Shown: positions 3,770 through 45,015, counted from the stretch's first letter. The stretch: 64,000 bases of DNA from Prorocentrum cordatum (GCA_963575745.1 CAUYUJ010000303.1:1-64000); one strand, 5' to 3'. The notes: generated by a model not told the origin, from the letters alone. Numbers and translations: made by a program.

Positions 3770-3809
<40 letters not shown>

Positions 3810-3979
3810 CCTTGGGCCCCTTGATCCTTCCGGTCGGAGGGTGGGTTCGGTGCACTTGGCCGGCTTCTCGCGCGGTGCGGCGTCCGTTCGGGCATCTCGA
3901 GGGCAGGGAGGCGGAAAGGGGCACGGGCGCCGGTCCCCGTCATGCAAGATAGATTATTTTGGGGCTGGGTTTTGAATCG

Positions 3980-4038
3980 GCACGAACGGGATGGGTACGG
4001 AAAGAATGGGTACAATGCCCAACAGCAGTTCTTGTTCA
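3980..4038 (+). mobile_element. Left part of a ~205-bp MITE split by the LINE at 4045-11084
   Basis: GATGGGTACGG...ACAATGCCCAACAGCAGTTCTTGTTCA matches the first ~60 bp of the intact copy at 13891-14097. Confidence 0.85.
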
Positions 4039-4044
4039 AGTTCA

Positions 4045-4066
4045 TCCGTAGCCATTTTGGCTCAAG
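4045..4066 (+). other. Dinoflagellate spliced leader (DinoSL), genomic copy at the LINE 5' end
   Basis: TCCGTAGCCATTTTGGCTCAAG is a 22/22 match to DCCGTAGCCATTTTGGCTCAAG. It is followed by TC rather than a GT donor, so it is not an SL RNA gene. Confidence 0.97.
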
Positions 4067-4088
4067 TCCGTAGCGGCTTCTGCTCAGG
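4067..4088 (+). other. Relic (diverged) SL copy
   Basis: TCCGTAGCGGCTTCTGCTCAGG is a 16/22 ungapped match to the SL, directly in tandem with it. ATG follows at 4091. Confidence 0.75.
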
Positions 4089-4090
4089 AC

Positions 4091-5300
4091 ATGGCCTCGC
4101 TGGCAAGGGGGAGCAGCGGCCCCCACAGTGCCACTCGCCTGCCTTGCCAGACGAGGTTTACAAGTTTTGTGAGCTCCTGGTTGAGCAGACTCCTCAGTTC
4201 TCTCGTGCAGGCTGTGCGATGTCGAATGGTGTTGGCTCGAAGGACGTCCTACTCGGCCCACGCAAGCCACTGTGGAATTGCACGAGATGCCATAGGAAAG
4301 GGAACTGGGCGTCTCGGATCAAGTATGTTTGCGGCTGCCCTGCGCCCGTTGAGGTATCAAAAGCAGCCAAGAAGGCACATGAGAAGGCAGTGGCAGGTGG
4401 TGCACAGCAGAAGCCGCCCAAAGGAAAGTGGTCGCAAGGTGCTCTGCAGCTACAAGAAGCGCTGGATTCCATCCTCAAGAGGCTCGACGCGATGGAGAAA
4501 GGCGGCAAGACTGGTGAAGTCAAGCCTCCTTGGCGCAGAGAGTCGGAGGACGGGACGGACGTCAAGGACATCAAGGAGAGGCTGGCACATTGGCAAAAAG
4601 CGGCCCGCTTCTCAACTCATGCTGAAGATCGCTCCTCGGCAGAAGCGCAGGTTGCACGGCTGCAAAAAGGCACTGCAAGAGGCAAGATCGGTGCACGTCC
4701 AGCAGATGTCCATCAACACCCGCCTGTCCACGGCGATGGAGACTGCAGTCACTCTCGAGACCAACCTGGCGGGGAAGAAGCTGGAGGTCGAGAAGGCCAA
4801 AGCAGAGTTTGACATAATGCTGGAAGACGCACAGTTAGCCCTGGGTGGGGCCAAGAGGCAAGCTGAAGTTCCCCAGCAAGAAGCACGCGAAGCCTACGCC
4901 AAAGGCCTCGCACAAGATGGAGAGCAGATCCTCAAGATGAGCGGGCCCCAGTTCGCCTCCGCCAACCAGGAGTTCAAGGAGCGTATCGGCAAGACGCGGG
5001 CAGACGCTGCAGGAGGCAAGCACCTGGACACCTTGCGGCAGCTGCTGGAGGTCCAGGCCGCCTCCATCAAGGAACCCAGCGTCAGGCTGGGCCACATGCC
5101 GCAGATGATGAATGGATTCCTGCTGGTGCTGCTGATGATGACATGGAGCTCGACGAGCAAGACGAGGAAGATCTTGCCGCTGCAGGAGAGGCCCTCCTTG
5201 AGGCCAGACGCGCTGCATATGGAGATGCCAACCAGGAAGACGCAGCACAAAAGATTGCAGCGGCGAAGCGAGCTCTCCGTGACCAACTTGCCCCCATTCG
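4091..5300 (+). pseudogene. LINE ORF1 (RanBP2-like zinc finger plus coiled coil), frameshifted
   Basis: WNCTRCHRKGNWASRIKYVCGC at ~4273-4336, followed by heptad-rich helices (LQEALDSILKRLDAMEK; LETNLAGKKLEVEKAKAEF) split between two frames. Confidence 0.7.
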
Positions 5301-6254
5301 TCAGAAGCGAGCGCGCGTTTAATAATCGCGGCAGTTTCGGCGACAGCAATGATGCGTTCTGCGCATGTTGCGAAGTTCATGCCCATATGTCGTCTGAATG
5401 GTGGCTGCTGGCAGGAACTGATTCTGCTGAAGATGCCCTTCCATGTGCTTCCACTCAGCCGGCTGCGGTGGGAGTTGATGATGGCGCCGTGTCAGATCCA
5501 GAGCAGGCCTGGCGCGATTGCAATGGAGAGTTCTGGCAGTGCACCGCCATAGATGTGGGCTGGCCTCACCTGGGCTTCGCGGTTCCTGCGTTGCAGCCCC
5601 ACAAAGGTGTCCAGGATATGAGGCCTGCGCCTGATGATGCTTGGAAGAGGTGGCCTACAGCTGCCACCTCAGCGCTATTGTCTACTTCGTTGGCGGCCAG
5701 TTCTGCTTCGCGCACGGCTGCTGCGACGCAAATCCACAGCAGCTCGGCGGGGTAGGCTGATGGGGCCCCTGCCAGTTAGCTTCATGATGGGGTGGGGGGG
5801 GGTGGGGGGCTGCCCGCGCAGCCTGCTGGCGGAGGCCGATCGGCTGGGGCCGAGGCTGCTGCATGTTTTTTTCGAGCGCAGCTTCGTCGTCACAGTTGAT
5901 GGCTCAGAGGTCGCAAGATGAAGCGACAAGAGATGGTGCCCCCTCGCCCCCACGTTGCGCCCGACAAGGTGATCGACCAACTTGTGCCTGGAAGAGCGCG
6001 GTCTAGATGACCATACGCGGTCACCTCATCAGGGCGATATCGTTCGACGGCCTGGCCGTCAGGATTGGGCTGGTGCTCCTCGTGCAGATGGCGCTGAACT
6101 GCGTGCTGCCCAGGTTCCTGATGTACATCTTAGTGATGCTGCTGATGCTCAGCGGCAGGAGTGTGCGCCTTGTGTGCAGGCTCCTTGCGTGTTCTCGCTG
6201 CTGCTCCTCGTCGCGGGACTCCCAGGGATAGGAAAGCTATGGAAAAGCGAGATG

Positions 6255-9200
6255 AATGGGCATTCTTTCCTTGTAACGCGAGCACCTGGTCTTCCTGGGA
6301 GCTGATCATGGAGTGGAGGATGCAGGAGGCCCGAGGTCCGAAGCTACAGTTTTGGGCTGCGCAAGAGGCGAGGGTTTCAGATCACGGCTTGGTGAACCAA
6401 CATTCTGCCCCCCCTGCGAGCACGAGGTCCCAATGCTGATGTTTGCCCTGCAGTCTGCACAGGCGCGTCTGGTTTCTCCACTTCGGCAGGTGCATTGGCT
6501 GGACGCCTCTCTCGCATCTGCCAGCGCACGGCGCAGCTGGATGAGGTCTACGCCGCGCCAGGGACCCGCGGCAGGATCATTGCTAGACATGTCGGTGGGG
6601 CCTCATCAGGTGGGCCGATTTGGCTGTCTGTGTATTTCTATCACTCCCAGGGGGTCCAGGGCGACAACCTACCCTTGATGACTGCCTTGGGGGAATATCC
6701 CAGCTCTCTGGCTCTTCCATAGGCGATAGGCTGCGATGCAAATGGTTCCTGGGACGTCTGGATTATCTAAGTGGTGCCACAGGCTCGGGGCCTCAGTAAT
6801 CTCTCCTGGGGAAAAGATTTATGCTGTGGGATCTGGTCAGGAGTATGACTAGTTCATGGTCTCTGCAGGTTCGCCGTCTTGTGTCAGCTCCATAAAGGTG
6901 TGGAGTGAAGCCCTCTGCTCGCCGCACTCTCCTGTGGAGCTTACTCTACGAGGGGTCAGCCTAGCTCTGCCAGTACGCGTTAGGGTAAAGTGGAAAGTGT
7001 TCCCTACTGGATGCTTGCGTGGGCCTCCGCAGTTGCCCTGGGCCTGGAACACGGGGGCCACGGGGGGCCTGGGCCTGGAGGTTGCGCGGGGTCAACGGGT
7101 TTAAAACGCTGAGCTTGAACTATGCCACATTTCTGGCGTCGCGGGGGGGGGAGATGGACATGGGCGAGTACGCTGGATGGACGGACGGTTTCAGGAGGAA
7201 GCAGGTTTCCCTGGGCATTGTTTTTAAAAGGTAAGTGGTTGGCGCATGGTACTCCTTGTCTTCGTGCCTGGCGGGCTCTAGACGCGCTTCTCGTCAAGGC
7301 TGCAGCGTGTGCAGGAGACCTGGCGGGTTCTGCGATGTGGCCTTCGTTGCGCGCGTCCATTCTCGTCTTGAGCATGGGCAATCTAGGTGCCAAGTTCCAA
7401 CGTCTGGCCCCTAGCCTTCCTGAGCTGATTCGAAAGATCGAGACTCCCATGGGGGTCGAGATCGGTTGCCTGGGGCCGGCCTGCAAGATGATCTACGATG
7501 AGATTTTCAAAAATCAGTATGATAATAGATGGGCTGATTGGAAGGCCTGGGCCCAATATGCTGCTTTTGCAAAGGCTGGCAAGGCCGCGCAAGCCTACTC
7601 TAAGAGGCATAGGCCCCAGCTCAGGGGCCTCGTGCTGCTGAGGGGTGGGCGCTCCAAGGAGAAATGCAATTTCTGCTCTTCAGGAGGACTGGGGGAAGCG
7701 CTGGCTTGCGCATGACTGCGCCCTCTCGCCTGCGCAGCATGCCGAGGCATATGCGGGGCCTCTTCCAGGCAGGCCCGATGGGCAACAAGTTAGGTGGGCC
7801 CTCAGTAAGTTCACGCACGACGCTGGTTTGAGAGCCGATTGTATGAATCCTAGGAGCTGGTTGTAGCTGCCCGATGATTAGGTGGATCGGTTGACGGACC
7901 TGCTAATGCTTTTGGAAGGGTGCCCCAAGTTGCCCCATAAGTATGCTACCCTCATCGTGTTCCAGGGTAAACCTGACGGTGCTGGATTGCGCCCGCTGGC
8001 GCATTGTGACCGTCCTCAGGGTTTGGGCCAGAGTTCGTCAGCAGGTGGTCAGGTCTTGGGAGCGTTCCCACCCTGCTCAATTCTTCTGGGGTGAGAGGGG
8101 CAACGTCTGTGACAGGGCAGGGTGGAAGCATGCCATGATGTGTGAGTTTGCTCTGATAAAACACTTCCATCCGGGGACTCTGTTTAGCGACTTGGGCAAG
8201 TTTTACGACCGAGTGGCACCGTCGATTCTCTTCGAGGAAGCCAAAGCCACAGGTGTCAGTCTGCGTCTTACGCGCGCGGCTATCCAGCTGTATATTGGCG
8301 CTCGTGCTCTCACGCTCCAGGGGGCGATCTCGGCCATCTTGCACGCTGCAGGCGCGATGTTAGCCAGCTGTAGTCTGGCTACATCTTCTGCGCGAGTTGT
8401 TTTGTACCGATTACTCTCAGCGATCACTGCAGCATGCCCTTCTCCCGCGATCAGAAACGTGATTGACGATGTTTCGACGCAATCCATTGGCGCGGCACGT
8501 TTGATGGGGGAGCAACTGGGAGGAGCTGGGGCGATGCCCGAGGAGGGTTTCGAGAAGCTCGAGCTAGCATTGTCTGGCAGAAAGACCAAGCGCATTGCAT
8601 CGCGAAAAGATTTCGATGTAGTGCTCCGTGGGCCCTGGGACAAGTACGGCTTCAAGACTCACCTTGTGCCGCGGTCTTTGGGTTGTGGCGCTGTTGCGAA
8701 ACGCATTCGGCGAAGCCCGACTGTGCTTGCTCGTCTTTTGAAGGCTTCCAAGTGGTCCAGAAGGTTACTGAGACAGAAGAATGCGGGGGCCTTCTGCGGG
8801 AAATGCCCCGGGGTCAGCAGTGGCAGGGCAATGCCCCATGTAGTTGCACGCGATGGGGCTCGCAGCAGCGCGCAGCTTGAGCAAAGACAAGTCGGGGGCC
8901 CTCATGTCGTTCAGGCCTAGGTCGCACTCAATTGGAGCCCGAATGGGTCCATATTTCTTAGGCCGTACTAACGTGGTGTAGGGCTATCTGGGATGGATCT
9001 CCTGGGCTTGATGTTATGCAGTTGGCGTCTGAACGAACCGTGGATGACCTCTGGCAGGTCAGAAGGCCGTGGAATATGTGTAACAGTCCAGCACATGCGT
9101 ACATACTCACGCTGCGCGAGTTAGGCTGGGTGCCTACTTCGGCCAGACAGGTTTCTACTGCTCGCGGTGAAATGGTGGACCTGCCATCGTCATCGCCTCT

Positions 9201-10800
9201 TATGGTCAGCAGTCTTGCGCAGCGCGATACAGGACACTGGGCAGATAAAAGAGCCCCCCCCTCAGGCCGAAGCTAAACGGGGTCTGGTGCAGGCTTGTTT
9301 TGTGGGAGGGGGCCAGAGAACTCCCGGGGGGCGGGCGCAGTCAGGTCTGGGGGCAACATCGCAAAGCGCGTGTGAGAAATGCGTTTGCTCTTGGCTCTTG
9401 GACTCAGGCTCGCCTTAAGGAACGCGGGCTGGCCGATGACGTCCTCTGCCAGCTGTGCCTGGCCTGCAAGGGCACCCTGTTCCATAGGAGGTTCGAGTTT
9501 GAGGCCTTCGACGGAGATAGACGGCAATATCTATTTCTGCTTGTTTGAAGGCGGCGAGAAGAGTGAAGGACTGGGGCAGGATCTTGAGAAGTATGCTGCT
9601 GGGGTACTTCCTCATCTTCGAGAACTGATCCCTCCTCCCCTCTCGATCTCTATCCTCCTGGGAAGTGTCGTGGTTCAACAGGCCGGCCTCTGGTAAGCTG
9701 AGCGGCAGATTTTTCACTGATGGTTCTGCCATGCACCCTCAGTGCGATGACACCCGCAGGTTTGGGTGGAGTCTGGCCCAGATCAACGAATGCGGGGATG
9801 TGATTTCTGGCGCCTATGGGCCTGCGCCTAGTGAAGAGGCCCCGTGGTTGCAGGCTCGAGGCGGTGCGGACTGCGCCGACAGGATGGCGCCAGAGCTTGT
9901 TGAACCGTTTTCCGACAACACGTTTTTTTTCTTTTTTATTAATATATATATATATATATACACATACGGATTGCCAGAGGACCTTTTGGTTGTGCTTGGG
10001 ACAGGACCAGCAGTTGCTCTTCCCAGAATCCTCGGGCCCACCTCTGGACCAAGGTTTGGCATGTTTTTTCCTTTTCTATATATATATGCATTGTTTTTGT
10101 TGCTGTTTTTTGTTTTTTTCATCTATATACATTTGTATACATATATACATATATACATATACATGGGGTGTCTGCTTCCAAGGTCAAAGGCCACGCGATT
10201 GTGGCTGATCTTTTAAACGGCAGATGCACGGAGGCCGAGTGCCTCGGTAATAAGCTTGCTGACAGGTTTGCTAAATCAGGTGCTGCGTGCAACTCTTTGC
10301 CCTATCAGAGTTTGGAGCTCCGTTCCAGTTGATTGAGCACCAGAAGGAGCTGCTCAGATGGGGGGGGCATGCAAGACGCAATGATGGCTGATAGAGGTTA
10401 AGTGGACTCGTCTGGGTTCCCTGGGCCCGTCGAGGTGGGCGGCAACATGGAACGCAACTCCCAACCTAAGTCATCCAATATTGTTCTGACGGCCCCTCGC
10501 ATTGATTCCAGGGTGCCCAGTCTGTCTGACACAGCTGAAGGTGTTACCGCGGAGGTTCTAAGTGAAACCACCCTCTTTTCCAGATTGTAAGGCCATAACC
10601 TTTGCATAGCTAAGGTTTTCGTCAGGGACGGTGGGGGGGCTGGTGGGAGCGGGTGGGTGATCTGCTGCTTGAAGTGCGGTGGATACGCATGGTCAGGCGT
10701 CATGTCCTTGGCTGGCAAGTCCCAGGGTCAGCCTAGGACTAAGGATCTCAGGCAACAAGGGTCGAGGTTCTTGCGTGGTGTGTTCCCCTTTCATGGGCAA
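6255..10800 (+). pseudogene. LINE ORF2 (APE endonuclease, RT, RNase H, C-terminal Cys motif) with many stops and frameshifts
   Basis: APE: FFPCNASTW, AAQEAR, LSVYF, GCDAN, HSPV (~6260-6935). RT: KPDGAGLRPL, DLGKFYDRV, VIDDV (~7970-8475). RNase H: FFTDGS...GWS, KVKGH, GNKLAD (~9710-10265). Cys motif ICCLKCGGY at ~10660. Confidence 0.88.
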
Positions 10801-11084
10801 AACATGATGTTGGGTGGACTGTTTCAGGACATGGATCCCCGTCCCTTTTTGACTTGTTGGCTTTGATCAGGTCGGCGCATAGAGGGATCCAGATCAGGCG
10901 AGCTGATGACAACGATCATGCCGCTGGGGTCCCAGGCTTGTGGGAGGAAAGGCGGAGCCCTGCCCAGCTGCTCTCACGTTTCGGCCTGGAGACGCCCGCT
11001 CCACAGTCACATGTTGCTGAGTGAGTGAGTTTTGTGTTTGGGGCGGCCGGCACCGACGGCCGTTTCCATTGAGTACAGTACAGT

Positions 11085-11249
11085 ACAGCAGTTCGTGTTC
11101 ATTTTGAACAGGACTCGCTGTCCGCGCCGCCGCGGCCTGTGTCCATTTGCGACAGAAGGCCGCTTGCCCAACAGCGGCCGCTGTTGGTTTGGGACAACAT
11201 TTGGTGTTGGGCATTGTGCCCACTTTTTCCGTGCCCATTTCGGGCGTCC
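11085..11249 (+). mobile_element. Right part of the MITE split by the LINE
   Basis: ACAGCAGTTCGTGTTCATTTTGAACAGGACTCGCTGTCCGCGCCGCCGCGGCCTGTGTCC...TTTCGGGCGTCC is collinear with 13934-14097. Confidence 0.9.
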
Positions 11250-11285
11250 AAATTGATCTCCGAGGCCTCTTTGAGAGAGCTCAAG

Positions 11286-11430
11286 GGTTGTGGATGCCAT
11301 GACAATGGACACCCCAACAATCCGATCGTCCAGTCAGTTGTGTGTTTACAATGTGGAAGACATGTTCTAAAACTGTTTCAAGCATGGTTTTACATTTTCA
11401 AAAACATGTTTGGAACATGTTGTAGACATC
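11286..11430 (+). mobile_element. Truncated copy of the 'TTGTGGA...AACATGTT' MITE family, between 24-bp direct repeats
   Basis: Homologous to 11667-11864, 13155-13337 (reverse) and 52641-52832 (reverse). GAGGCCTCTTTGAGAGAGCTCAAG occurs at 11262-11285 and 11433-11456. Confidence 0.8.
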
Positions 11431-13337: not shown

Positions 13338-13890
13338 GGCCTGAGACGGGCGGCGTGAAAGGAGCGGGGGCGTCGGGAGGATCAAACTAACGAGAGGGTG
13401 GAAGAGGAGCTGGTAAGTTTGGGATGAAAGGGGCGGCGGAGCAGGCGGCGGAGGTGGATGGGGCGCGGCGTGGAGAGGGAACGGACAAGAGGGACGCCCT
13501 CCTCCCTCTCCACCTCCTCCAGCCTCTTCCCCTCCACTTCCGTCTTCGTTTTGTGTCCTCCGCGCCGACGTTGTCCTTTTCCTGTTTTCGGTGGGTGATC
13601 GCGCTATTCCTACATCGATTGGATCCCGTCCAGCCCATTCATTTGCCATCGGGCAAGTCTTTGCCCAAGGTGTTCGCGATGTTTGGGGTCGTGGGATTAT
13701 TTGCATGTGGATCTTAGCGGGCAAGGAGCTGTATGACATTGAGTTGATCCGTCCTCGGAGGCACCTTTCTTCAGGCGGTTGGAAGGCTTATACCCCTACG
13801 GTGACAGGCGGGGGGCGTAGATTTCCCAACCGACACCAGACAAACGCTCCCGATGGCGAGATCATGTTCTACACTGTTCTTCACCGGTCG

Positions 13891-14097
13891 GGACGACCGA
13901 AATGGGTACGGACAAAAATTAGCACAATGCCCAACAGCAGTTCCTGTTCATTTTGAACAGGACTCGCTGTCCGCGCCGCCGCGGCCTGTGTCCTTTTGAG
14001 ACAGAAGGCAGTCTGCCCAACAGCGGCCGCTGTTGGTTTGGGACAACATTTGTTGTTCGGCATCGAAACTTTTTTTCCGTACCCGTTTCGGGCGTCC
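13891..14097. mobile_element. Intact ~205-bp MITE (empty-site paralogue of the LINE target)
   Basis: TIR GGACGACCGAAATGGGTACGGA / TCCGTACCCGTTTCGGGCGTCC. It carries a single ACAGCAGTTCCTGTTCA at 13934-13950. Confidence 0.88.
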
Positions 14098-15129
14098 AAA
14101 ACCAGCTAGATATCGGCAGATGGCGGAGCAAATCGAGGGCGAAGAGGACGATCGAACATCGAACCAACATTCGGAGGTGGATAGATCTCCTACACTGACA
14201 CGTCGATTAAGGAGTTGGCCGTTTTCGGTTCGCGAGAGGGCGTCGCGGCCGTCATTTTTGCAGCTCCAGGTCCATCGGTTTCGGTCCCAGGCCGTTCTCA
14301 CTAAGGGGTCAGCTACGTGAGCTCATTTTCAAACCCCCTTTGCTATCCCCCCCTTTTGTCCGGCCCGAGAAGAGGACGATCGAACATCGAAGCAACGCCG
14401 CGCCGCGGGTCTTGCCTCAGCTCCGCCCCCGAGGGCCCGCGTCGGGCCACCAGGCTGTCAGAAACACTGGCCCCGGGGCGGAAACAGGAAGGGGCCCCGG
14501 CAGATGTTTGGCCATTGATTGCGACAGGATGTTACGGCTAGACGTACGAGTGACCTTTCGCCGGAGTGTCTTTGGTGCGGGCCCAAATGGGTCCCCCGAT
14601 CGCCGAACGCGCTGTGACATCAGCGGCTTGCGCGCTTGTTCTTGGCCCCCCCTCGCCCTTCTAATGCCGCGCACCAACGGTCACTCTTACCCCTGGGTCA
14701 CTCTTGCTCGTCGTCGAAGGTTGATTGCGACAGGATGCAGATGATGATGTGGATGTCGATGATGAGGAGGACGGGGGCGAGTTGGAGGAGGAGGAGGAGG
14801 AGGAAGAGGAGGAGGAGGAGGAGGTGTTGGCTTCTCAGATCGGACGGACGGTAACGGGGAGCAGCGCATATCGGGAAAGTGGCCCTGAAGGGTTCCTCCC
14901 CTGCCACAGCGGTGCCAAACAAGCGCACGAAACGCGGCCGTTGCCCACCGCCGTTCACGAACACCTCTACTGATTTATTTCTGGCGATGTTGATGCTGGT
15001 GGTGATGATAACGAAGATCCTAATGAGGGCCATGCTGACGGGCAAGCCTTGAACAGTTACCATAGAAGATTGGAGTGCCGCGCGGGTGCACCCGCAACCG
15101 CCGCGGTTCAAGCCTTCTCGTGAGGGGGT

Positions 15130-20779: not shown

Positions 20780-23537
20780 GCGAGGCTGAGCCGGGCGCTG
20801 GCCGTGGCCAGCCCGGGCTTGTGCCAGTGTGGCATTGCCAGCTTGTCGCTTTGGATGAGAAGGCAGGCGACGCTCTGGCGGCCGCGCGATATCGGCGACA
20901 TGCCGAGGCAGCCAACAACCGTGGCCAGCCCCTGCCCCCGCGCATCTCCGACATCGGCGCTCAGATCGTTTAGCTCGAGACTTGCCTGCGTAAGGAGCTC
21001 CAGAAGTTGGACATGCATCGCGAGTGAGTCACCGAGCAGCAGACCAGTTGCCGAGCCCTACAGGCGACTGGCCGACTGCGACGCCGAGTACAAAGCATCA
21101 GTGACCAGTTTGGTTGGGTTGCGGAGTCAAATTTGCTAAGATTGCCCCTGCCTGAGCCCTTATAGCAGGTGCCGTGGAAGGCCAGGGTGACGTCGTCCAA
21201 TTCGTCGACGTTGATTCGTTCTGCAACGTCGTGGAGCACGAGGCTCGCGAGGAAGACCGCGATAATATTCGACAACGGCGCGATCAGCTGCGCGGCCAGA
21301 TCCAATATATCGCCAAGGGCATCTTCAGTGGATCCATCAACCGCGCGGAGGCCATCAATGCTGAGCATGCGAACTACATCAAGCAGCTCAACAATACGCG
21401 CAAAGCGGGCGCCGACGGCGCTGCCGCAGCAGAGCCAGGCAGCGGCAAGGGCGGCAAGGAGACGGTCAAGCAGGTTTCTTCAGCCCCGACGGCCGCGCGT
21501 GCCAGCAGTGCTCCAGCGGGTCCTACTGCGGCGGCTGGGTATCTGGCGTGCGCGAGCGCACGCAGGCATGCTTCTCTGCAGCGAGCGGGGCCGCGGCGGC
21601 CGCGAGACAGACGGCCCAGGGCCCCCCCCCCCTGCCCCCCCCCCTGCCAAATGAGGGCTGTGCCGGGGGGGGGGGCCTCCAGTTGTCAGATTGCTGATCA
21701 TTCAATAACTTGCGCATCCAGAGGCCAGTGCTCTGCGCGCCCGCCAGACCCTCCTCCGCCGCGCTGGCTTTTGGCCGCGCGTGCCAGAGCGAGGCTGGCA
21801 GCGACTCTGCAGCGCCGCTTTGGAACATACCTCGCGGCACAGTTCCTAAGCCCGTCCGCCCAGGGCCCTGGCCGCGACTGACCCCCCGCCATGGCCCCGC
21901 TGGCCTCTGGCGCAGAGCCCTTGCGGGAAAGCTTCTGATGTGTCTGCGTGGAATCAACCTGCGAAGCAGTCCATTGTTTTCTTGAGTGCACCACCACCCC
22001 TAGGAGATGCCCACTGTTCGTCGAAGGAAGAAGCTCTGAACTGCACTGCGCGGGCGACGCTCCGTTGGTGGCCCCCGCATTGCACGTCGCACGTCATTTT
22101 GGTCCAGGAACATCCGTTGCGCCAAGGTGATGAGCTTGACTCGGTATCTTCCCGAGCGAAAGCACATGGTTGGCAGTTCTTACGCGCGTCTGCCCATGCC
22201 ACCCCCGCCGGGGGCACCTTGGCTGGAGTAGGCATCCTCGTTCGTGACTTCCCTGGGCTTCGCCCCTCGACTGGTGGCCATGCGCTCGCGCCTCATCGAG
22301 CTGTTGCTGGAGCATCCCCGGGGGGGCGCCGCCTCCCTCGCGCATTACCGCGCCACCCCCACGGGCATGGCGATTTTAACGCCAGGTTGTTGGCACATGT
22401 GGTTGCCGCTCTTCAACTTGAAGCTGGGCCGTACATCCTCGCGCTGACTTCGACCTCAAGGCTCGAGCCTGGCTTGCCCCAGGATTCAGAAGTCGCTTTG
22501 CCGCGTCACGGTCGCATCGCGTTTCCTGAATGGGCTTCAGTTTATATGGGGCGCCCGCATTCTCAACAATGTCGTGCTCTCTCGGCTGAATTATCTAGAG
22601 GATTGGTTGGTGTGAGTGTGGATCTGACTGCTCCGACGTCTCCGCATTCGCCAGTCCCGGCTGTGTTTCATCCTCTGCTGGCGCAGATGCATGAACTGAA
22701 ATTCCACCAGCCCCCAGCAATCCTTGTGGACCCCATCATGCGAGCTCCCCCTGGGCCCCCCCACTGGACTGGGGCGCATCAGCTGGGGCGGCGCCAGGCA
22801 GTTCAGAAGCTGTTGGAGTTGTGTCATCGCGCTTGGAATAACCTGCCTGGGCGTGAACTGGCGAATCCTCGGGGCGAAGCTCCCATGGCGCCGCAGTTGC
22901 ATTGGGCGCTGATCCTTGGTAAGGACAAGAAGCCGCCCTTCCGCCAGCCCAATCTCTGCGCCATCAAGTGGCCCACCACTGAGTGTAGTTTTATTTGCAG
23001 GCATGCCCCGATGAACACCGCGATGGGGTTTCTCCCATGTCACCTATCCTGTCTGAGCCTCTAGCGCGCTTGCGCGATGGGCTGCGGCATCATGAGCGTC
23101 GGTGCTATCAGGTTTTGCGATGTCCGTCGGATGCGCCACCTCTCCGCCCACCCCCGCGAGCTGCTTGAGCAGTTAGACGCGGCTCTTTCCGCCGCCGAAT
23201 CTCCCGCGCAGCAGGGGCCCCTGTCAGACTGAAAGCAATGGCTTCTGGACAAGGTCGAGCTGGTGGCTAAGCGTGCGTTCCGTTATCAAAGGCTTGACGC
23301 CATGGGCTCTGGCTGCACCCTTGCTGTTCAAATGCGTCGCGGGGCTAACCCGCGGGCCCCACTGGCCAGCGGGGCCCCGAAGTTGCCGATTCTCTGGGAG
23401 GCTCAACCGACCCCGCATCCCGTTCTTGAGCGCCCCCCTTTGCTGGCCCCGCCCTCCGCGCTCGCGGTGGGGGACCTTCGCGGGCGCAATCGGAAGCTTA
23501 GGGGCGCCTCGACATCGGCCGATGGTTTCTACGCGCG

Positions 23538-23568
<31 letters not shown>

Positions 23569-26045
23569 ATCTCGGACCCCGCCCTCGACATGTTGGTTAT
23601 CATCTTCGAGGCCGTGAGACGTTGCGCCCTCGTTCCCGCGCGGGCTCGTTTCGCCATTATTTCAGTCGTTGCAAAGCAGACTGGGGGGGGCGTCGGCCCC
23701 ACGGCCTCTCTTGCTCTATACTTCGGCAATGGGGGGGGGCACCGCGCGGGGGCCCGGCGAGGGGGGGGCGCGCGCGAGCATTATCTGCAGCAGGCAATGC
23801 GTCATCTTCGGCGGACGGCGCTCGGCGACAATCCGCTCGCACGGAGACGGCTGCGCGCGCAGGAGAGGTTTCAGGTTCCATCTTCTTCGGGGTTTGTTCA
23901 AGTACTCTGAAACCATTAATTTGGGCGTCTTGCTCAGCCGACGCGAGAAGCGCGGCGTCGACGTCGCGCTGGCCTGGCTTGCCCTTGCCACGCGCAGTAA
24001 ACCCAGATGCGCGGCGACGGGCAAGCTCGCGAAGGGGCCCTTTTCGCGCGCTCAGGAGGGTCGGTGCTGGATGCCCGTTTGCTCCCACAGCGATTGGTGT
24101 CTTCATCCTTTTGGCCCCTGGATGATGCGCGGTTCCCCTGCGCGGCTGCTCGGGGCGCATGCGCTCACGATTGTGGCTTTTCCACGATTGAACCCCCCTG
24201 CATGTGGCGCCCGACCTCGCCGCTGCCGCCCGAGAGTTGCACGGCGTCAACATCGAAGGTTTGGGTGGCAGCATCTCGCTAGACGCGACCAGCAAGAGAG
24301 TTGCTTCACCGCGCCGGCAGCAGGCCCGCGAGGGCCCCTAAGTGTTCCAAGGCGTTCGCGTTGAGGTCGTCCACACTGAAGGCCAATGCTCGTAGGCTGT
24401 GGGGGGCGCGATAGGCCTTCAGCAGGCGCGCCAGGAAGATTTTCGTCGCGGGGCCTCTGCCTGGCTATTCTGACTGACCTGAAGTCCACGGAGTATGTGA
24501 TCATGAGTGCGGCGTGCGTTAGGACGCTACATCAGGCCCAAGGCTGGCTCCCGCCCCGTCACCCCGGCCCTGGTCCTGAACAAATATCCCATCCACCACG
24601 GGCCCATCGCCCCCATCTTGAGGCATTCGAAGGAGCTCTGGGTGGCCCGCGTGAGGACATTTGTTTTCACGCTTTTCTAGAAGGAGCCAAGACCCGCTTG
24701 GGAGTCTGTTGTCTCGGGTCCTGGCCCTGGTTGTTGGAAGCAGGTGCTGGCGTCATCCCGGCCGCGAAGCTAAGCTTGAGGAGGATAGGTTGGTCCATCA
24801 TGCCGAGATTCGCTGTCATTGTTGACCGTTTCGGAGTGCAGTTGCCCTTCGCGCCCATCAGTCCAGCCCGCCAGCGACATCTGCATTGCGCTGTGTTGCA
24901 CGTGCGTGAGACAAGCTTTTGCCTGCCCTGCCGCAGTTGGTCCGAGTGTGCCATGATCAAATGCGCGCTCAGCTTCAGTCTCGCAAGTCCTAATGCATGC
25001 GAGAAGGGCTGTATAAAGTGCGTTGCGCGCGCGGCAGCGTGGTCCAAGACTCGTGGACGTGATGCCGCGTATCAACTGGTATCCGTGAGTTCTGTGGCAG
25101 CGCAGGTGACAGCATAGTTCATATATCGAAGCGTTGCACAGCAGTTGGGGGTCAGCGGCAAGAAATCTTCGGGAGAGACTTGGACCTCGCCCCGCCAGCT
25201 GATTTCAGCGAAGAAGATGAGTCCGCCCTCCTGCACACCAGACGCCCCTACGAGCACCCCGAAGACACCGCGCCCCCGCCCGCCCGCCAGCTCGACGGAC
25301 CAGGCTCGGGGATTCGTTTAGAGTGCGTTTATGACCCATGCAATGAGTCGATTCACTCGTTTGTGCAGTGTCTTCGTGAGCTCTCCAGGGACGGGTGGGC
25401 GGTCGTTTGCGTTTCGGAGTCTTGGGGCGTTGTCGGTTCCACCTCTGGCCCGCTGTTGGCCCGCGTTCCCCAGACCCCGCAGTCCGCTGAATTCGCTGCC
25501 TTATGTATTGCCGTGCTGCGCGGTGTTGCCGATTGTGACAGTCACTCTCACTGTTCGGATGTTGCGCGACAGGCTGCCGATCCCATCTCTGCTCGGCTCT
25601 CTTTTCGTCGACCGCGCGCTGGATTCATGCCCCAGGCTCTGGCGTCGCGGGCGGGCGCGGCGCTCGAGGTCGAAGGCCGCGTCGTTGGCAGCCCTGATTT
25701 CGCCCCAGCCCAGAAGGCGCACAAGCGTGGCAACGACCGCGCAGACAGGGCCGCGCGAGTGGAGGCCCTCCGCCACCCGCGCCCCGGCCCAAGCGAGGCC
25801 CAGCGCACCGTCAGGTTCGCGCGCATCTCGCGCGTTGTCTGCGGGCCGGCTGCCTGCCCGCAGCATGCCTCTTTGGCCCAGGTTGGACCTCAGCGAGGTC
25901 CCGTGGATGAAACGCCCCTCCGCACCGAAACCTTCTCTGCCCCCTCGCGACCGGCATTGGGAAGGTAGGTTTTGCATTTGCGTTGTTTGTTCTCGGTGCG
26001 CCCGCTGGTCGGACAAACCTGGTCTTGGGCGGTGCTGCGGTTCTC
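20780..26045 (+). mobile_element. Degenerate LINE (ORF1-like region; APE-RT-RNase H)
   Basis: Helical ORF1-like remnants at 20800-21600. APE: LNCTA...ILVQEH, AGVGILVRDF, SPHSPV (22030-22660). RT: LFKYSETINL, VGAGCPFA (23500-24250). RNase H: GWAVV, QSAEFAAL, GNDRADRAAR (25320-25770). C-terminal CICVVCSRC at ~25975. Confidence 0.8.
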
Positions 26046-37722: not shown

Positions 37723-39855
37723 AGAGTACGAGCAGGGCGAGGCAAGAACCCCACCCCCTCCCTGCCCGCGCGTGCGCGCGCAGGCAGCGGAGCCAGGGAC
37801 CGCGGCGACCCTGACCGCCCCCGCGAGCGGGACCGGCGGCAGGACTTGCGCGGTCGCCTCGGTTCGGCGTGGGCCCGGTGTGCCCACATCTTCTCGTCCG
37901 TATCGGCACTCTGTGACCGCCCGCTCCTCGCCCAGCACCCGCTCTGCCGATCGGCGGCAGTGCATCAGCCTCGGAGGAGGGAGGGCCCACTGGGCCGAGG
38001 AAGGGGGCGACGCAGCCGAGAGAGGTCGGCTACCCCCCGAGAGAGGTCGGCTACCCCCTCGTGGTGTTGGCCAGGTCCTTTCAAAAGCAGTTCAGAACTC
38101 ATTTGGAAAAAAATATCTCGATCCGCACCTTCGCGTGGAAGACGCCGGCGATGGCCCCGCGCAGGCCGCGCATTCACTCCTGGCTGCGGGCGCGCGTGGA
38201 GCTTTCAACCGTCTCCGCGCAATTCGCTCGCCGATTACGTCTTTGCCCCCTCCGGGGTTGAGCACACTGCCATTGTGGCCGTGAGCCCTACCGCGGCGAC
38301 AGGCGGCCTTTTCCGAGGCTGTGGCATCATCGTTGCCGCCTCGGTGGACGCCGTCGTGACCCCGCGCCCGCCCGAGCCCGGGGCCCGCACCGACGTGCAC
38401 GCGCGCCAGCGCTGCCTTCTCCTAGACGCGCTGGGAAGTTTCCATCGGCAAGCGCCATCTCGGCCGCACCGGCGGTGCCAAGCCAGCGGGGCCGCTCTGC
38501 GCGCGAGCTGGCGCGTGCCAGCGCGGCCGCAGGGACTCGCGAGCTAGTGCCAAGGACATCCGCAAGTGTGGCCTCATGCGCAGTTCAACATGTTGCGGGT
38601 GTAAGGGTGGGATGTTTTCGCGAGCGGTGGATTTGACGATTCACGGCCCATAGCCTGCACATGGCTTTGACTTGAATCGAGTGCATCCTATACAATGCAG
38701 AATGCAACACATTTGGTGCGCTCGACAATTGCATCGTGTAGCTTGCAATACAATACTTGGATCTCGTCAGCGTTCACCACACAGTTTGCAAGGCGTACCT
38801 AAGTGTCCCGTACAACGCAGGCTGTACCCCCATAGATTGTGACACACCAGTTGTATCGCGAAACATGCAACACGTGGATTGCTTCCCGTAGGCTGCGCAT
38901 AATAGTTTGAAACGCACGTGTTGAATTACAAACAAGAGTGGGCACTCAAAGGACAATAACACATTGTTTTGGGCTCGCGCTGTCAGCCATCTGGTCCGGG
39001 ATATCCAAATGATTAGTAAGGGTGGCGATGCAGTGGAGATGTGCGAAGTATATATCGACGGTTGTGGACACAGCTTCACCCACACCGTTGGCGCAATATT
39101 GCGGCGACGATGTCAAGTTGACATATTGTATTATGTCATTGTGCATGGTGTTTTTGCCCCGCGGGGACAATCCACCCTCCTTCCCCGTCCTCCATGTGTT
39201 CACACATCCTTTTCTCAGCGCCGATGGGAAGATGGGTATGCCTTCGGATGTGAGGTGGGAGCATTATGAAGAGGGAGGGCGGGAAAAGGTGAGGTGAGGA
39301 GACGGAAGAGGAGGACAGGGTAAAGAGGAAGAAGAGGATCGAGAAACCGAGAGAGTATGAAGACAAGTGAAGGATGGTAAGGGCTCGGTAAGGGTAGGGA
39401 AGGGAGGCTATACAGTTATATCTCTCCCGTTCTGCCCCGTCCCCCCCGAACGATTATCCTCCTTCCATCTCCCCGCTCCACCTCTCCTTTCTCTCCGTTC
39501 CTCTCCCCTCCACCGACCATCTCCCCCCCCCCACCAGCCGTCCTCCTTTCCCCTTGCCATCAAAATGCCCATCGGACATCCTAAAGCCCATTCCGACCAG
39601 GAACTCGATGCGGTCCAGCTTTGGCGACGAGAGACCGCCGGGAGGCCGAGCGCACGCCCTCCTTGGAGGCCGATACAGCATCTCTCCCCCTTCCAGCGAT
39701 TAGGGAGGGAAGAGGAAAGGAAAACCCCTGGAGAGAGGCCCGCTTAACGGACAGGCGACGGGAGGGATTTCTCCCCCTCACCCATTCCTCTTCCATTCCT
39801 TTCCGTTCTCCTCCTCTCCCTCCCATCCAACTCCCCCTCTTCCACTCCTCCCTCC

Positions 39856-42047
39856 GTGAAGGGGCCCTTCGCCGCGGTCAGGCTCTCCCTCGAGCGCGTA
39901 GGCTGGCAGATCATCGACGGCAGCACCTGGCTCACGCACTGCGGCGACTGCATCTGCATCTTCGAGACCTCGCCCTGGGTCATCAAGCGCCTCCTCTGGA
40001 TGGCGGTGGAGGCGTGGCAGTGGCGACAGGTCGGGCAGCGGCCTGGTCTTGCCCACCTGGCTGATGGGGGCATCCTTGAGCCCATCGTCAGGCTCACCAA
40101 CGCGGGGGCGGTGCAGCGCAAAGGGTTTTTCGGCCGACAGGTGAACTACGTCGACGGTGACGCTGATGCCGCCACTCCTCGGCCTGTCGTTCGACCTGCT
40201 GTGCCCACTGAGGTGGCGGCGCTGCCTTTGGGCAATGGTGTAGAGGCTGGCTCTGCTGCGTGCGGCCTTTCTGGTCCAGCTCTGGCTTGCGTGCTGGGAA
40301 CGGGCTACCTAGCGGTGGAGGCCAGCGCCGCTAATCTACAAGCTGCGCGCGCTGAAGCTGGAGATGGATGGGGTGACCTCATCAACGACCTGCTCGGCCA
40401 GGTGGCGCCTGACCCCCCGCCGCGACCAGACCCAGAGGGCAGAGCACCGCTCGGACCTGGGCTGCCTGCTGGAGACGCTGGAGCTGGGGCCTGCCCAAGC
40501 GTCGCGTCTCCACGGCAAGGTGTGTCGACGGTTCCTCAGGGTGGGCTGGCGGATGCTGCCCTTAATGACGCCGCTCCCCCGAGTGGCGCGCCTCGAGGAG
40601 CTACGGGACCCACACCCAATGCCGGTGGCGCGACGCCCGCTCAGAAGGCTAAGGCGATCCGACTCGCGCCCAATGAGTGCGGCTACCTCGCCTCGGTTAT
40701 CGTGGACGGCCAGTGGCCTCAGCGCCGCAAGTACCTGAATGGCTACGCCGCGGACGACAAGTGCTTGCTGTGCGGCGACGTCGGCACGCTGCTGCACAGA
40801 CACACGTGCTGCGGTGGATGGCCGCCTGAGCTGAGGCTGCACAGCAAGATCCGCGAGCTGGCGAGCAGGGCCGTGCTCGAGGAGGTGGAGTGCCTGCTGG
40901 AGCGCGTGCTGTGGCCTGCGCCCCGCGGCATCATCAAGCCGCCTCGGCCTCCTGGGCTCAGCTGGCTGGGCCAAGACGTTGGCGGCATGTTGCCGCCTGG
41001 CGACGTGTACCTGGACGGGTCCGCCTACGAGATCGATTTCCAGCAGTACACGAGCGTCGGCTGGGCTGCGGTGGTGCTGCAGGAGGGCGCGGACGCCTTC
41101 CGCACGGGCATCTCGGGCACGCTGTGCGAGCCCTTCGCCGACATCAGCGGTGGTGAGTTGGCTGCGCTCATCGGCACGCTGCGCCACGCCGTGCCGCCCG
41201 TCAGGACCATCGTCGACTCGAACTTCGTGTTCAAGGGTGTGATGGAGCACGGGCCGCTGAACACGACGCGCTGGGGCTACGCGTGGGCCCACCTCTGGCG
41301 TGAGCTCTGGAGGCTCGTCGAGGACTCTGGGGGGATAGGCCCGCAGGGCCTGACCCTCAAGAAGGTACCTGCGCACGTCCCGAGCCGCCGTGTGGTTGAC
41401 GAAGGCATCATCACCGTTCGCGACTGGATCGGCCACCGCATCGCTGACCAGGCCGCGAAGCGCGCGGCCGAGCGCGCGAGAGTCGCGCCTGAGGCCCGCC
41501 AACGCCTGCAGTCGGCACGGGAGCTGGTCGAGGGTGTGGCCATGTGGGTCTCCGCGGTTGGGGCCGCCGTGGGCGGGGACGACACCACCCACCGCGCGGC
41601 GAAGCCCAACAAGGCAGCCCCACGAGCAGCGCTGCAGCCCGCTGCTGCCAGGCTCGGCTGCGACCTCCGTGGGCCGCCTGGAGCGAGTGCCCTGGCTCGA
41701 TTGTGACGTCCGCCCTGGACCACAATAGGAAGCTGCGGGCGCAGGGCGCCTTGGCGCACGTCATCGTGAAGATCGAGCCGCAGATCGAGTCCCAGCTGCA
41801 GCGCGAGATGCCGCTGCTGGCCTGCCTTGTCTGCGGGGCCACGGGCGCGGCGAGGAGCTCGTCATTTCCCCGTGCCTGCGGGGAGTCTGGTGCCAAGGGC
41901 AAGCTGGCGATCGCCCGCCTGGCAAAAGGCTTCGCGCCAGGCGCCGCTGGCCGTGTGGCCATCAAGATCGTGCAGCTCGGCAACCACGGCTTCGAGGACG
42001 GCGACTCGGTCATCGACGGCGACGTCCTCGAAGGGCCGCGGCCCTGA
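39856..42047 (+). mobile_element. 5'-truncated, well-preserved LINE ORF2 (zinc finger, RNase H, C-terminal Cys motif)
   Basis: A 616-codon open frame contains CLLCGDVGTLLHRHTCC, VYLDGS, GWAAVV, GELAAL, IVDS, LWRELW, KVPAH and GHRIAD. After a frameshift comes LACLVCGATG...C, ending at stop 42047. Confidence 0.9.
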
Positions 42048-44967: not shown

Positions 44968-45015
44968 CATCATCATTATAATCATCATGTCCATCACCAG
45001 CATCACCATCAACAT
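44675..45015. repeat. (CAT/TAT/TAG)n microsatellite
   Basis: Directly visible. Confidence 0.95.

Follow-up and report, generated by a model that had tools for sequence, protein, structure and literature searches.

A decayed LINE in Prorocentrum cordatum begins with a perfect copy of the dinoflagellate spliced leader (SL, or DinoSL), a 22-nt sequence that these organisms attach to their mRNAs by splicing. The element lies within a window of 64 kb, that is, the whole stretch of DNA that was analyzed, where it forms an insert of about 7 kb (4045–11084/11088). Its first bases, 4045–4066, read TCCGTAGCCATTTTGGCTCAAG and agree with the SL at 22/22 positions. In our view, the best explanation, to which we assign a probability of roughly 0.7, is that the RNA of this LINE underwent SL trans-splicing and that target-primed reverse transcription (TPRT) then copied it as far as its 5′ end. 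Such a start suggests that the RNA of the element was processed like a host message before it was copied into DNA. The insert, its target and the related features described below are all given on the plus strand.

The Insert and Its Target Site

The insertion interrupts a MITE-like element. The left part of this element, including the left TSD, occupies 3977–4038 and matches 13888–13950 (84%, 63 nt), while the right part, at 11085–11252, matches 13934–14100 (90%, 168 nt); by self-BLAST, the left part also has an inverted match to 11238–11194. An intact copy of 207 bp is found at 13891–14097, and within it, the two flank matches overlap by exactly one 17-mer (13934–13950). This copy ends in 28-nt terminal inverted repeats that are 89% complementary, and thus the label MITE-like is fair. 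It represents an empty paralogous site, in which the 17-mer is present once and no SL is found. Around the insert, by contrast, the 17-mer is present on both sides, as the left TSD (ACAGCAGTTCTTGTTCA, 4022–4038) and the right TSD (ACAGCAGTTCGTGTTCA, 11085–11101).

At the 3′ end, the insert carries the tail (GTACA)x3 (11073–11087), which overlaps the first bases of the TSD. The last ACAG of this tail doubles as the opening 4 nt of the TSD and occurs in the empty site as well. At the 5′ junction, six bases, AGTTCA (4039–4044), stand between the TSD and the SL and are missing from the empty site. They repeat the last 5 nt of the TSD (GTTCA) and are probably junction filler copied from the target. 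No terminal direct repeats, and hence no LTRs, were found in the insert by self-BLAST. Insertion by TPRT is argued for by the TSD, by a simple-repeat tail with ACAG microhomology and by 5′ filler copied from the end of the target.

The position of the SL within the TSD and its absence from the empty site indicate that it arrived together with the insert. A preliminary description of this DNA had proposed as much and had read the flanks as two halves of a MITE and the 3′ end as a (GTACA)n tail, all of which agrees with the present results. It had also reported a 17-bp TSD; the two copies are indeed identical at 16/17 positions, although the length has to be given as 13–17 bp because ACAG is shared with the tail and with the empty site.

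A Perfect Leader Followed by a Relic

In the 64 kb window, the SL 21-mer has a single match with three or fewer mismatches, and none was obtained in 100 shuffles. Only the exon is present at 4045–4066: it is directly followed by TCCG, whereas GTAC and a run of T come after the SL 21-mer in the four contigs resembling SL RNA genes that are described below.

Adjoining the perfect SL exactly, there is a second, degenerate SL sequence (4067–4088, TCCGTAGCGGCTTCTGCTCAGG). This relic agrees with the SL at 16/22 positions, its first 8 nt being identical to it, and ends 2 nt before the ATG at 4091. Its local-alignment score of 20 was matched by none of 500 shuffles of the 160 nt located 3′ of the SL. 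As the relic retains TCCGTAG, it is full-length and not of the truncated CCATTTTGGCTCAAG type; consequently, an acceptor exactly at its 5′ edge must be assumed. The perfect match of the SL and the decay of the adjoining relic, both within one decayed copy, imply that the two differ in age. Judging from their sequences, an SL with a relic behind it suggests two successive acquisitions of the leader.

A scan of 3800–11300 against Rfam (E ≤ 1) gave no ribozyme or other Rfam family at the 5′ end; its only matches were two sub-threshold ones to miRNA models, at 11085–11121 and 10130–10162.

The Body of the Element

By homology to its relatives, the insert is an APE-RT-RNase H LINE. LINE sequence runs from ORF1 to the tail and comprises, in order, the ORF1 region, an APE remnant, the reverse transcriptase, a CCHC knuckle and an RNase H-like domain. 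The ORF1 region (4091–5755), defined from ORF lists and codon-position GC, is decayed. A 554-aa ORF starts at ATG 4091 and is composite according to codon-position GC, a measure that was validated on two homology-supported RT segments. Another frame, which includes ATG 4222, is favored over 4092–4680, and the frame of ATG 4091 is favored only from about 4700. No Pfam family in any frame, no DNMT domain and no homologue were found for this region.

Further downstream, the C-terminal part of an APE endonuclease is recognizable at 6739–7131 by tblastn with residues 183–316 of the relative P0009 (E = 6e-12); the N-terminal half of the domain gave no tblastn match. In P0009, Pfam assigns 41.9 bits to Exo_endo_phos, a family that exceeds the cut-off in three of the 14 relatives scanned (P0007, P0009 and P0043). 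The reverse transcriptase (7660–8830) was delimited by a tblastn map and an alignment (A1), in which its motifs DLGKFYDRV, ASCSLATS and VIDDVS are conserved in the window copy. With phmmer, 1114 relatives were identified at E ≤ 1e-3. Pfam lists RVT_1 in 12 of 14 long relatives, and a profile of relatives matches structure chains of R2 and of LINE-1 ORF2p (E from 5.6e-8 to 2e-4).

The region after the RT (8935–9530, from tblastn and translation) includes a CCHC-type knuckle, CQLCLACKGTLFHR, whose C-C-H-C columns are invariant in the relatives. Next comes the RNase H-like domain (FTDGS...), found by tblastn at 9665–10800 and interrupted by a simple-repeat stretch at about 9940–10200. Its columns D(G)S, E, D, H, N and D are invariant in 13 relatives, and a weak Pfam match to RNase_H is seen in one of 14 (21.2 bits, under the cut-off).

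Although it spans the full length of the element, the copy is dead, and it is autonomous by type only. Its ORF2 homology crosses at least five frame changes in tblastn, and the longest ORF of the ORF2 region has 337 aa. Several points of the preliminary description need to be qualified in this light. A full-length LINE had been claimed, which is true of its extent and not of its coding capacity. The APE, RT and RNase H motifs reported there become visible through the relatives, but Pfam finds no family on the copy itself (20 plus-strand ORFs, E ≤ 0.1). Likewise, the SL had been placed directly before ORF1; the leader is perfect, but the relic intervenes and the ORF that starts at 4091 is the composite one.

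Leaders on Other LINEs

The window holds one copy of this LINE according to self-BLAST, and metagenome contigs gave no match to a 24-mer from its 5′ UTR. A second LINE-like stretch of the window, in a more advanced state of decay (APE at 22012–22917), has a best SL match of 13/22 in the 5 kb upstream, which is the background level.

Recurrence was assessed by an exact-SL scan of contigs from prokaryote MAGs. Eighteen contigs were obtained. Four of these resemble SL RNA genes, and among the other 14, two carry a LINE that is preceded by the SL in the same orientation. These two contigs are mis-binned and come from other organisms. Both LINEs are unrelated to that of the window and have the same anatomy, with the SL at or near the 5′ end.

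The first of these contigs, L144 (9096 bp, GC 0.70), contains an intact LINE of 8.9 kb with (GA)n on both sides, and the first bases of the element are the SL (117–137), which abuts the (GA)n microsatellite. TCGT comes after the exon, and the base before CCGTAG is C, compared with the usual T, A or G. ORF1, from 231, encodes a Zn_ribbon_RanBP domain (E = 1.6e-7), while ORF2 is open to 8965 and has Exo_endo_phos (3.8e-9), RVT_1 (3.7e-11) and CCHC and DGS motifs. The element ends at 9005 with ...GTAAAAAA, after which (GA)n resumes.

In the second contig, L137 (GC 0.43), the SL is followed by 96 nt, by ORF1 and then by an ORF2 with Exo_endo_phos (7.1e-8). The 96-nt spacer starts with GT and 79 nt without assigned identity and holds a truncated relic (12/14) that ends 3 nt before the ATG. 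Given the GT after the SL, a chimera with SL RNA is possible in this contig. The canonical truncated form of the relic is seen here and in L132.

How the Leader Was Acquired

According to the trans-splicing model, a copy of the LINE would be transcribed, probably within a longer transcript, and the SL would be joined by trans-splicing at an AG shortly before ORF1, providing the RNA with a cap and a defined 5′ end. The proteins of the element would then nick the target, the (GUACA)n tail would anneal to the nicked ACAG, and the RNA would be copied to its very end, whereby the SL would become DNA inside the TSD. The relic behind the perfect SL would be the record of an earlier round of the same cycle. 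In addition, the T-rich end of the encoded SL and its AG could supply the acceptor for the following round, so that a perfect SL would be restored each time. The LINE family may also need no promoter of its own, as the preliminary description had suggested. The interpretation given there is supported in part, namely for the arrival of the SL with the insert and for the LINE identity, and the relic and the two further LINEs add to it. Counting against the model are the full-length form of the relic, the background-level SL match near the second LINE-like stretch, the GT after the SL in L137 and the C before CCGTAG in L144.

Alternatively, an ancestor may have gained the SL once, so that it is now a DNA-encoded part of the 5′ UTR and the copy derives from an unspliced transcript, possibly one made from the promoter of the element. 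This is unlikely, but some observations fit it. With six bases between the TSD and the leader, the template could in principle have begun 6 nt before an encoded SL, and the relic shows that SL sequence can persist within a 5′ UTR. Moreover, the available portion of Song 2017 (PMC5585692) makes the case that promoter-like motifs, TTT(T/G), are retained in DinoSL relicts. Against this, the filler repeats the end of the TSD, which is expected of target-copied filler and not of RNA sequence. The different ages of the SL and the relic also speak against inheritance, as does the coincidence of a transcript start at most 6 nt from the edge of the SL, which would have had to occur again in L144, whose SL directly adjoins the microsatellite. 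Finally, the original source of the SL would still be trans-splicing. The SL of the window copy was probably gained by trans-splicing rather than by inheritance.

Another source of the leader would be a template switch, in which the reverse transcriptase jumped from the LINE RNA's 5′ end to an SL donor RNA or to another capped mRNA. LINE reverse transcriptases are known to switch templates. The GT and unassigned 79 nt after the SL in L137 would be compatible with such a jump, as would the 155 nt from the SL to ATG 4222 in the window, which cannot be assigned to the family from a single copy. It is nevertheless improbable. A jump onto SL RNA should bring in the intron, while the exon ends at AG and is followed by TCCG in the window and by TCGT in L144; the SL-like relic between the SL and ORF1 implies that SL sequence was at the 5′ end before; and rare accidents are an unlikely cause of one outcome shared by three unrelated LINEs.

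A LINE specific for SL RNA genes, or a master copy driven by the promoter of an SL gene, could also have carried the SL along. LINEs specific for SL genes exist in other eukaryotes that use an SL. For the window copy, this origin is contradicted by a MITE-like target whose empty copy is without SL, and it is highly improbable in general: L144 is inserted into a (GA)n microsatellite, the SL is whole and stops exactly at the splice-donor boundary, and the endonuclease is of the APE type, not restriction-enzyme-like. Lastly, an assembly chimera or cDNA contamination that joined an SL transcript to genomic sequence is scarcely credible, for although some of the frameshifts could be assembly errors and nothing else points specifically to an artefact, the flanks correspond base by base to a single MITE copy and a TSD is present, the SL lies in the interior of a contig of 64 kb, and the same anatomy is found on independent contigs.

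If the trans-splicing model is extended to dinoflagellate LINEs as a class, these elements might rely on SL trans-splicing in place of a ribozyme or a promoter of their own, and the same machinery might be the source of DinoSL-tagged retrogenes. This extension is tentative and at present rather doubtful. Under it, any read-through transcript would be shortened and receive its cap just 5′ of ORF1, and every new insertion would gain a copy of the SL, whose T-tract and terminal AG would provide the acceptor for the following round, making the 5′ end self-renewing. If true, LINE machinery would be the long-sought source of thousands of DinoSL-tagged retrogenes, copied from SL-capped RNA to its last base and inserted with TSDs.

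Comparison with Known Systems

A literature search returned no explicit description of a LINE with the SL as its 5′ end inside a TSD. Other links between LINEs and SL sequence exist in SL-using eukaryotes: SLACS, CZAR, CRE and NeSL-1 insert site-specifically into SL RNA genes and have a restriction-like endonuclease C-terminal to the RT. In contrast, the LINE of the window has an APE domain N-terminal and an RNase H-like domain C-terminal to the RT, a target other than the SL, and a leader that would have been the start of its own RNA. In U6-L1 chimeric retrocopies, which arise by template switching, small nuclear RNA sequence also lies 5′ of a LINE-made cDNA within one TSD. There, the whole snRNA is carried, whereas the insert described here has no more than the 22-nt exon, which ends at the splice site.

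A further parallel is with the DinoSL-tagged retrogenes. Slamovits and Keeling are said to have described, in 2008, the recycling of processed cDNAs that gives rise to them. These retrogenes, too, are retrocopies that start with an encoded DinoSL followed by an older relic, an arrangement that is taken as proof of a reverse-transcribed, trans-spliced RNA. Nevertheless, their cargo is host genes, while here the retrotransposon is its own cargo, and its TSD and tail show that the insertion was target-primed. Furthermore, their relic is truncated, and that of the window is full-length. In the sections consulted, Song 2017 (PMC5585692) reports that an RT function, the GO term 'RNA-dependent DNA replication', is enriched among DinoSL-relict genes, and Song 2018 favors Ty1/copia as the machinery of the retrogenes. 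The Gonzalez-Pech preprint on two Symbiodinium genomes finds no overlap of enriched functions between DinoSL-relict and RT genes, which counts against the trans-splicing model.

SymbioLINE and SymbioLINE-Dnmt (de Mendoza et al. 2018, PMC5890265) are described, in the text available, as having Exo_endo_phos, RVT_1 and RNase_H in ORF2, TSDs, conserved UTRs and no poly-A. Compared by this description alone, they resemble the LINE of the window in being dinoflagellate LINEs with comparable ORF2 domains and TSDs. SymbioLINE-Dnmt has a DNMT in ORF1, unlike the ORF1 seen here, and the same portion of PMC5890265 mentions neither 'spliced leader' nor 'DinoSL'.

L1Tc/ingi, with the internal promoter Pr77 and an HDV-like ribozyme, and the 5′ ribozymes of the R2 type (PMC1874656, PMC3185411, PMC3383444) offer a different solution. 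As outlined in the excerpts of these sources, L1Tc/ingi is likewise a LINE in a host with SL trans-splicing that needs a defined 5′ end, possibly from longer transcripts. These elements and R2 use unspliced transcripts, with their own promoter and a self-cleaving ribozyme, while the 5′ end of the window LINE, where no ribozyme of the kind that processes R2, L1Tc and RTE was found, is the host SL. Lastly, a DinoSL on a dinoflagellate +ssRNA virus (Levin et al. 2017, as cited in PMC9651163) is discussed, in the passage available, as mimicry that aids translation. This virus is also a selfish element with the host SL at its 5′ end, but it is an RNA virus with no TSD-bounded DNA copy, whereas in the LINE of the window the leader stands as DNA inside a TSD.

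Anatomy of the insertion

The dinoflagellate spliced leader (DinoSL, SL; 22 nt) is present without a mismatch at 4045-4066 (TCCGTAGCCATTTTGGCTCAAG), and its 21-mer core has no other match in the 64-kb window with up to three mismatches allowed, and none in 100 dinucleotide-preserving shuffles. On the forward strand, a left target-site duplication (TSD; 4022-4038, ACAGCAGTTCTTGTTCA) is followed by six bases, AGTTCA (4039-4044), and then by the SL. At the other end of the insert, a (GTACA)x3 tail (11073-11087) continues into the right TSD (11085-11101, ACAGCAGTTCGTGTTCA).

In a self-BLAST of the window, 3977-4038 matches 13888-13950 (84% over 63 nt) and 11085-11252 matches 13934-14100 (90% over 168 nt). 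Both matches overlap, in an uninterrupted copy at 13891-14097, by exactly the 17-mer 13934-13950. Given these matches and the terminal inverted repeats of the uninterrupted copy (28 nt, 89% complementary), the flanks of the insert are the two halves of a MITE-like element. The SL is absent from the uninterrupted copy; the 17-mer is a true TSD enclosing SL and insert, and the SL came in together with the insert. Hence the preliminary description, which placed the SL at a LINE 5′ end inside the TSD and found it missing from the intact copy, is borne out by the flank matches and the single 17-mer there, with some corrections. One of these concerns the TSD, reported as 17 bp: the duplication is real, but its length is 13-17 bp, since ACAG belongs to tail and target alike. 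Such microhomology would be expected if the repeat tail paired with a nicked target. The six bases at 4039-4044 repeat the final five bases of the TSD and are read as junction filler copied from the target. In all, the insertion bears the marks of target-primed reverse transcription (TPRT).

In the intact copy, the 17-nt LINE target is also one arm of a hairpin (13934-13970; 17-nt arms, 82% complementary, 3-nt loop), so the two staggered nicks enclose one palindrome arm. At position 11 of the 17-mer, each of the three copies has a different base (T, G and C).

Identity and decay of the element

The coding region of the insert is broken, as its ORF lists indicate, and Pfam finds no family in the 20 plus-strand stop-to-stop ORFs at E≤0.1. 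Its type was instead read from relatives of a 337-aa reverse transcriptase (RT) ORF at 7907-8917. A full HMMER search with this query against 1.84 billion representatives gives 1114 relatives at E≤1e-3, of which 273 reach E≤1e-10. P0002, the closest, is a 121-aa fragment with 77% identity over 119 aa; the next-best are short fragments only (80-109 aa; up to 59% identity), and long relatives reach at most 40%. A query restricted to longer proteins gives one weak match (P0001). The sole source of P0002 is a transcriptome-collection entry labelled as a green alga, probably through contamination. The entry does hint at transcription, in some organism, of an RT closely related to that of the window.

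Among 14 long relatives, Pfam lists RVT_1 in 12, Exo_endo_phos in four (three above the curated cut-off) and RNase_H in one, below the cut-off. The relatives map to the window in linear order on the plus strand: the C-terminal part of an APE domain (6739-7131), RT (7660-8830), a Cys/His region (8935-9530) and a C-terminal domain (9665-10800). When 13 relatives are aligned, D(G)S, E, D, H, N and D are invariant in the last of these, which matches the RNase H pattern, and an invariant C-C-H-C lies ahead of it. In addition, a profile built from the relatives matches the structures of R2 and LINE-1 ORF2p. On the strength of the ordered map, the invariant columns and the profile matches, the element can be assigned to the APE-RT-RNase H type of LINE, as first proposed, and the insert is LINE throughout. 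This copy is dead: homology across ORF2 changes frame at least five times (frames 1, 2, 1, 0, 2, 1), and a simple-repeat stretch breaks up the RNase H region.

The 554-aa ORF that opens at ATG 4091 is a composite of two frames. When the codon position with the lowest GC is taken as a frame indicator, a measure that agrees with homology in both RT control segments, 4092-4680 is assigned to another frame, with ATG 4222, and the 4091 frame is favoured only from ~4700 on. Either ORF1 starts at 4222, or it starts at 4091 and has suffered two later frame shifts. No relative of ORF1 was found by protein search and Pfam, and when ORF1 plus the SL peptide was queried against 5.8 G proteins, restricted to near lengths, none of 279 candidates reached E≤0.01.

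Self-BLAST finds a single copy of the element in the window, and tblastx of the element against the remaining window gives only noise. Two other pieces of LINE debris are recognised on the plus strand. The first, more decayed, spans 22012-25842 and has APE-like (22012-22917) and RNase H-like (24943-25842) parts by tblastn to the relatives, with no RT between them. The best SL-like 22-mer in the 5 kb upstream has 13/22 identities, which is background level; this absence weighs little because the 5′ end of the stretch is undefined. The second piece, 5′-truncated, lies at 39748-41703 (homology 39856-41682) and comprises a post-RT region and an RNase H-like domain within a 652-aa frame that is still open, with no Pfam family. 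Outside the element, 72 ORFs of at least 200 aa on both strands have no credible Pfam family (one weak Mucin match falls below the cut-off). LINE debris and the MITE pair aside, the 64 kb hold no recognisable gene.

A second, older spliced leader

Directly 3′ of the SL, at 4067-4088, lies a degenerate copy of it (TCCGTAGCGGCTTCTGCTCAGG). This relic is identical to the SL at 16 of 22 positions, the first eight bases included, and ends two bases upstream of ATG 4091. When the 160 nt that follow the SL are shuffled 500 times, the relic's local-alignment score is never reached. Because a perfect SL stands beside a 73%-identical one within a single decayed copy, the sequence points to two SL acquisitions of different age.

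Truncated relics arise by reuse of the AG inside CCGTAG. The window relic differs from these in being full-length, and the newer SL must therefore have joined an AG exactly at its 5′ edge. The last two bases of an earlier, DNA-encoded SL would provide such an AG in a simple way; if that terminal AG was used, the encoded SL would have served as its own acceptor. By contrast, L132 (a GTDB contig of 2789 bp) has two truncated relics in tandem behind its SL (CCATTTTGGCTCAAG), as in the classical description of recycled dinoflagellate cDNA.

Degenerate SL-like 22-mers are also found elsewhere in the window, at 42372-42393 (+, five mismatches), 45015-45036 (+, five) and 46710-46731 (-, six). With up to six mismatches, the window has five SL-like sites, whereas 20 shuffles average 0.75 and never exceed 3. 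These degenerate 22-mers may be old relics of retrocopies.

Spliced leaders on unrelated LINEs

Public collections were scanned for the exact SL 21-mer. Among prokaryote MAGs, 18 contigs contain it, in 20 stretches. On four of these contigs GTAC... and a T-run come after the SL, an arrangement resembling SL RNA genes, and they double as a control for the appearance of such a gene. Two of the remaining 14 are LINEs on mis-binned contigs of other organisms, with the SL upstream on the coding strand. The other 12 are mostly 1-4 kb, too short for ORF2, and Pfam was run on the ORFs of nine.

The first LINE, L134/L144 (hereafter L144), is a complete element on 9096 bp (GC 0.70). A (GA)n-type microsatellite precedes the SL (117-137), in which a C stands before CCGTAG, and ORF1 starts at 231, 93 nt past the SL, and carries a zinc ribbon of RanBP type (Pfam E 1.6e-7, above cut-off). 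There is also a 694-aa ORF without a known family. The ORF2 frame, open to 8965, holds Exo_endo_phos (3.8e-9), RVT_1 (3.7e-11), YVDD and a CCHC knuckle, together with an RNase H region of DGS type. The element ends at 9005 with ...GGGTAAAAAA, after which a (GA)n-type microsatellite resumes as on the 5′ side. Its RT has just 24-33% identity to relatives of the window RT. A Cys-rich finger can be seen by eye in the ORF1 of L144 and of the window LINE; their similarity is not significant (E 0.2), and a common ORF1 is not claimed.

The second, L137 (2541 bp, GC 0.43), has 77 nt of flank before the SL. The 96-nt stretch from SL to ORF1 ends in CATTTTGTGTCAAG, three bases before the ATG, which matches the 3′ part of the SL at 12 of 14 positions (a score reached by 10 of 500 shuffles). 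ORF1 encodes 286 aa, and ORF2 opens with Exo_endo_phos (7.1e-8). As GT follows the SL here, a chimera with SL RNA is possible at this locus.

The anatomy of an SL at the LINE 5′ end thus recurs: three unrelated LINEs, whose sources have a GC of 0.60, 0.70 and 0.43, have an SL at or next to the 5′ end, and in two of the three an older relic adjoins the ORF1 start codon. A 24-mer from 4074-4097 has no match in metagenome contigs. RT alignment gives no match in IMG/VR and GTDB contigs, and in metagenome contigs only L001 and L002, neither of which reaches the 5′ end or has an SL. Likewise, tblastn over 121 loci matches only these two metagenome RT loci and none of the 119 exact-SL IMG/VR loci. 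MAGs with L134, L137, L122, L124, L130 and L135 hold no copies beyond the loci already found.

Those 119 IMG/VR stretches with the exact 21-nt DinoSL (L003-L121) come mostly from giant-virus bins, with a mean locus GC of 0.22. Of 134 distinct contexts, 127 have an A before the SL, AT makes up 86% of the 30 nt upstream, and certain 12-mers recur immediately 5′ (ATATAAATTTTA x16, TTTACTAAACCA x14, ATATAATTTTTA x10); genes lie downstream. Giant viruses seem to carry DNA-encoded copies of the host SL at numerous gene starts, directly behind a promoter-like motif. At title level, no paper on a DNA-encoded SL in giant viruses was found.

Origin of the spliced leader

To our knowledge, all nuclear mRNAs of dinoflagellates are trans-spliced, so an SL on a LINE RNA is not in itself shocking. 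In the best-supported reading, LINE RNA would receive the SL by trans-splicing, as nuclear mRNAs do, and TPRT would copy this SL-capped RNA to its last base, so that the new copy begins with the SL. This was the core of the preliminary description; anatomy and recurrence support it, while its mechanistic extension is more conjectural. We infer that trans-splicing took place in this copy's own generation; the LINE may be independent of an internal promoter, and the SL may be renewed through the AG of an encoded SL.

The alternative that survives best, though unlikely, is that an encoded SL was inherited from a master copy; in its favour, the relic shows that SL sequence can persist in the 5′ UTR, and against it, the SL beside that relic is perfect. 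It is considerably less probable that a template switch onto SL RNA or another mRNA supplied the leader; GT after the SL in L137 speaks for it, the exon-only SL of the window against it. That exon-only form, unlike the SL of the four gene-like contigs, also speaks against an element linked to an SL gene, which is very improbable. An artefact is the least credible account, with the SL inside a TSD and the anatomy recurring.

Relation to known systems

As far as we know, every LINE must rebuild its 5′ end each generation, and the ways known to us are internal promoters and self-cleaving ribozymes. If the trans-splicing reading is true, SL addition by the host would be a third way, one that frees LINEs from dependence on their landing place in genomes where transcription runs in long one-way arrays.

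DinoSL relics reportedly mark retroposed host genes, an observation said to go back to Slamovits and Keeling in 2008. In the part of Song 2017 (PMC5585692) consulted here, such relics are treated as established marks of retroposed host genes, RT-related GO terms are enriched among DinoSL-relict genes, which is read there as machinery activity, and the machinery that makes SL-tagged retrogenes is stated to be unknown. The corresponding part of Song 2018 likewise states it to be unknown and favours Ty1/copia as mediator. SymbioLINEs with TSDs and conserved UTRs are described by de Mendoza 2018 (PMC5890265), with no mention of the SL. A full-text search, with most subscription journals outside it, found no statement that the 5′ end of a LINE is a DinoSL. 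The present case bears on the open question of which reverse-transcribing machinery makes the numerous SL-tagged retrogenes of dinoflagellates, as here an SL-capped RNA was inserted with the TPRT marks of a LINE. TSD-bounded proof, stacked relics at the ORF1 start and recurrence make it a clear case and tie LINE machinery to SL-tagged retrocopies.

Trypanosomatids are the other well-known hosts in which all mRNAs carry an SL. Whereas an Rfam scan finds no ribozyme at the 5′ end of the window LINE, trypanosomatid LINEs, according to the abstracts, rely on an internal promoter and an HDV-like ribozyme, and their transcripts are unspliced (PMC1874656, PMC3185411, PMC3383444).
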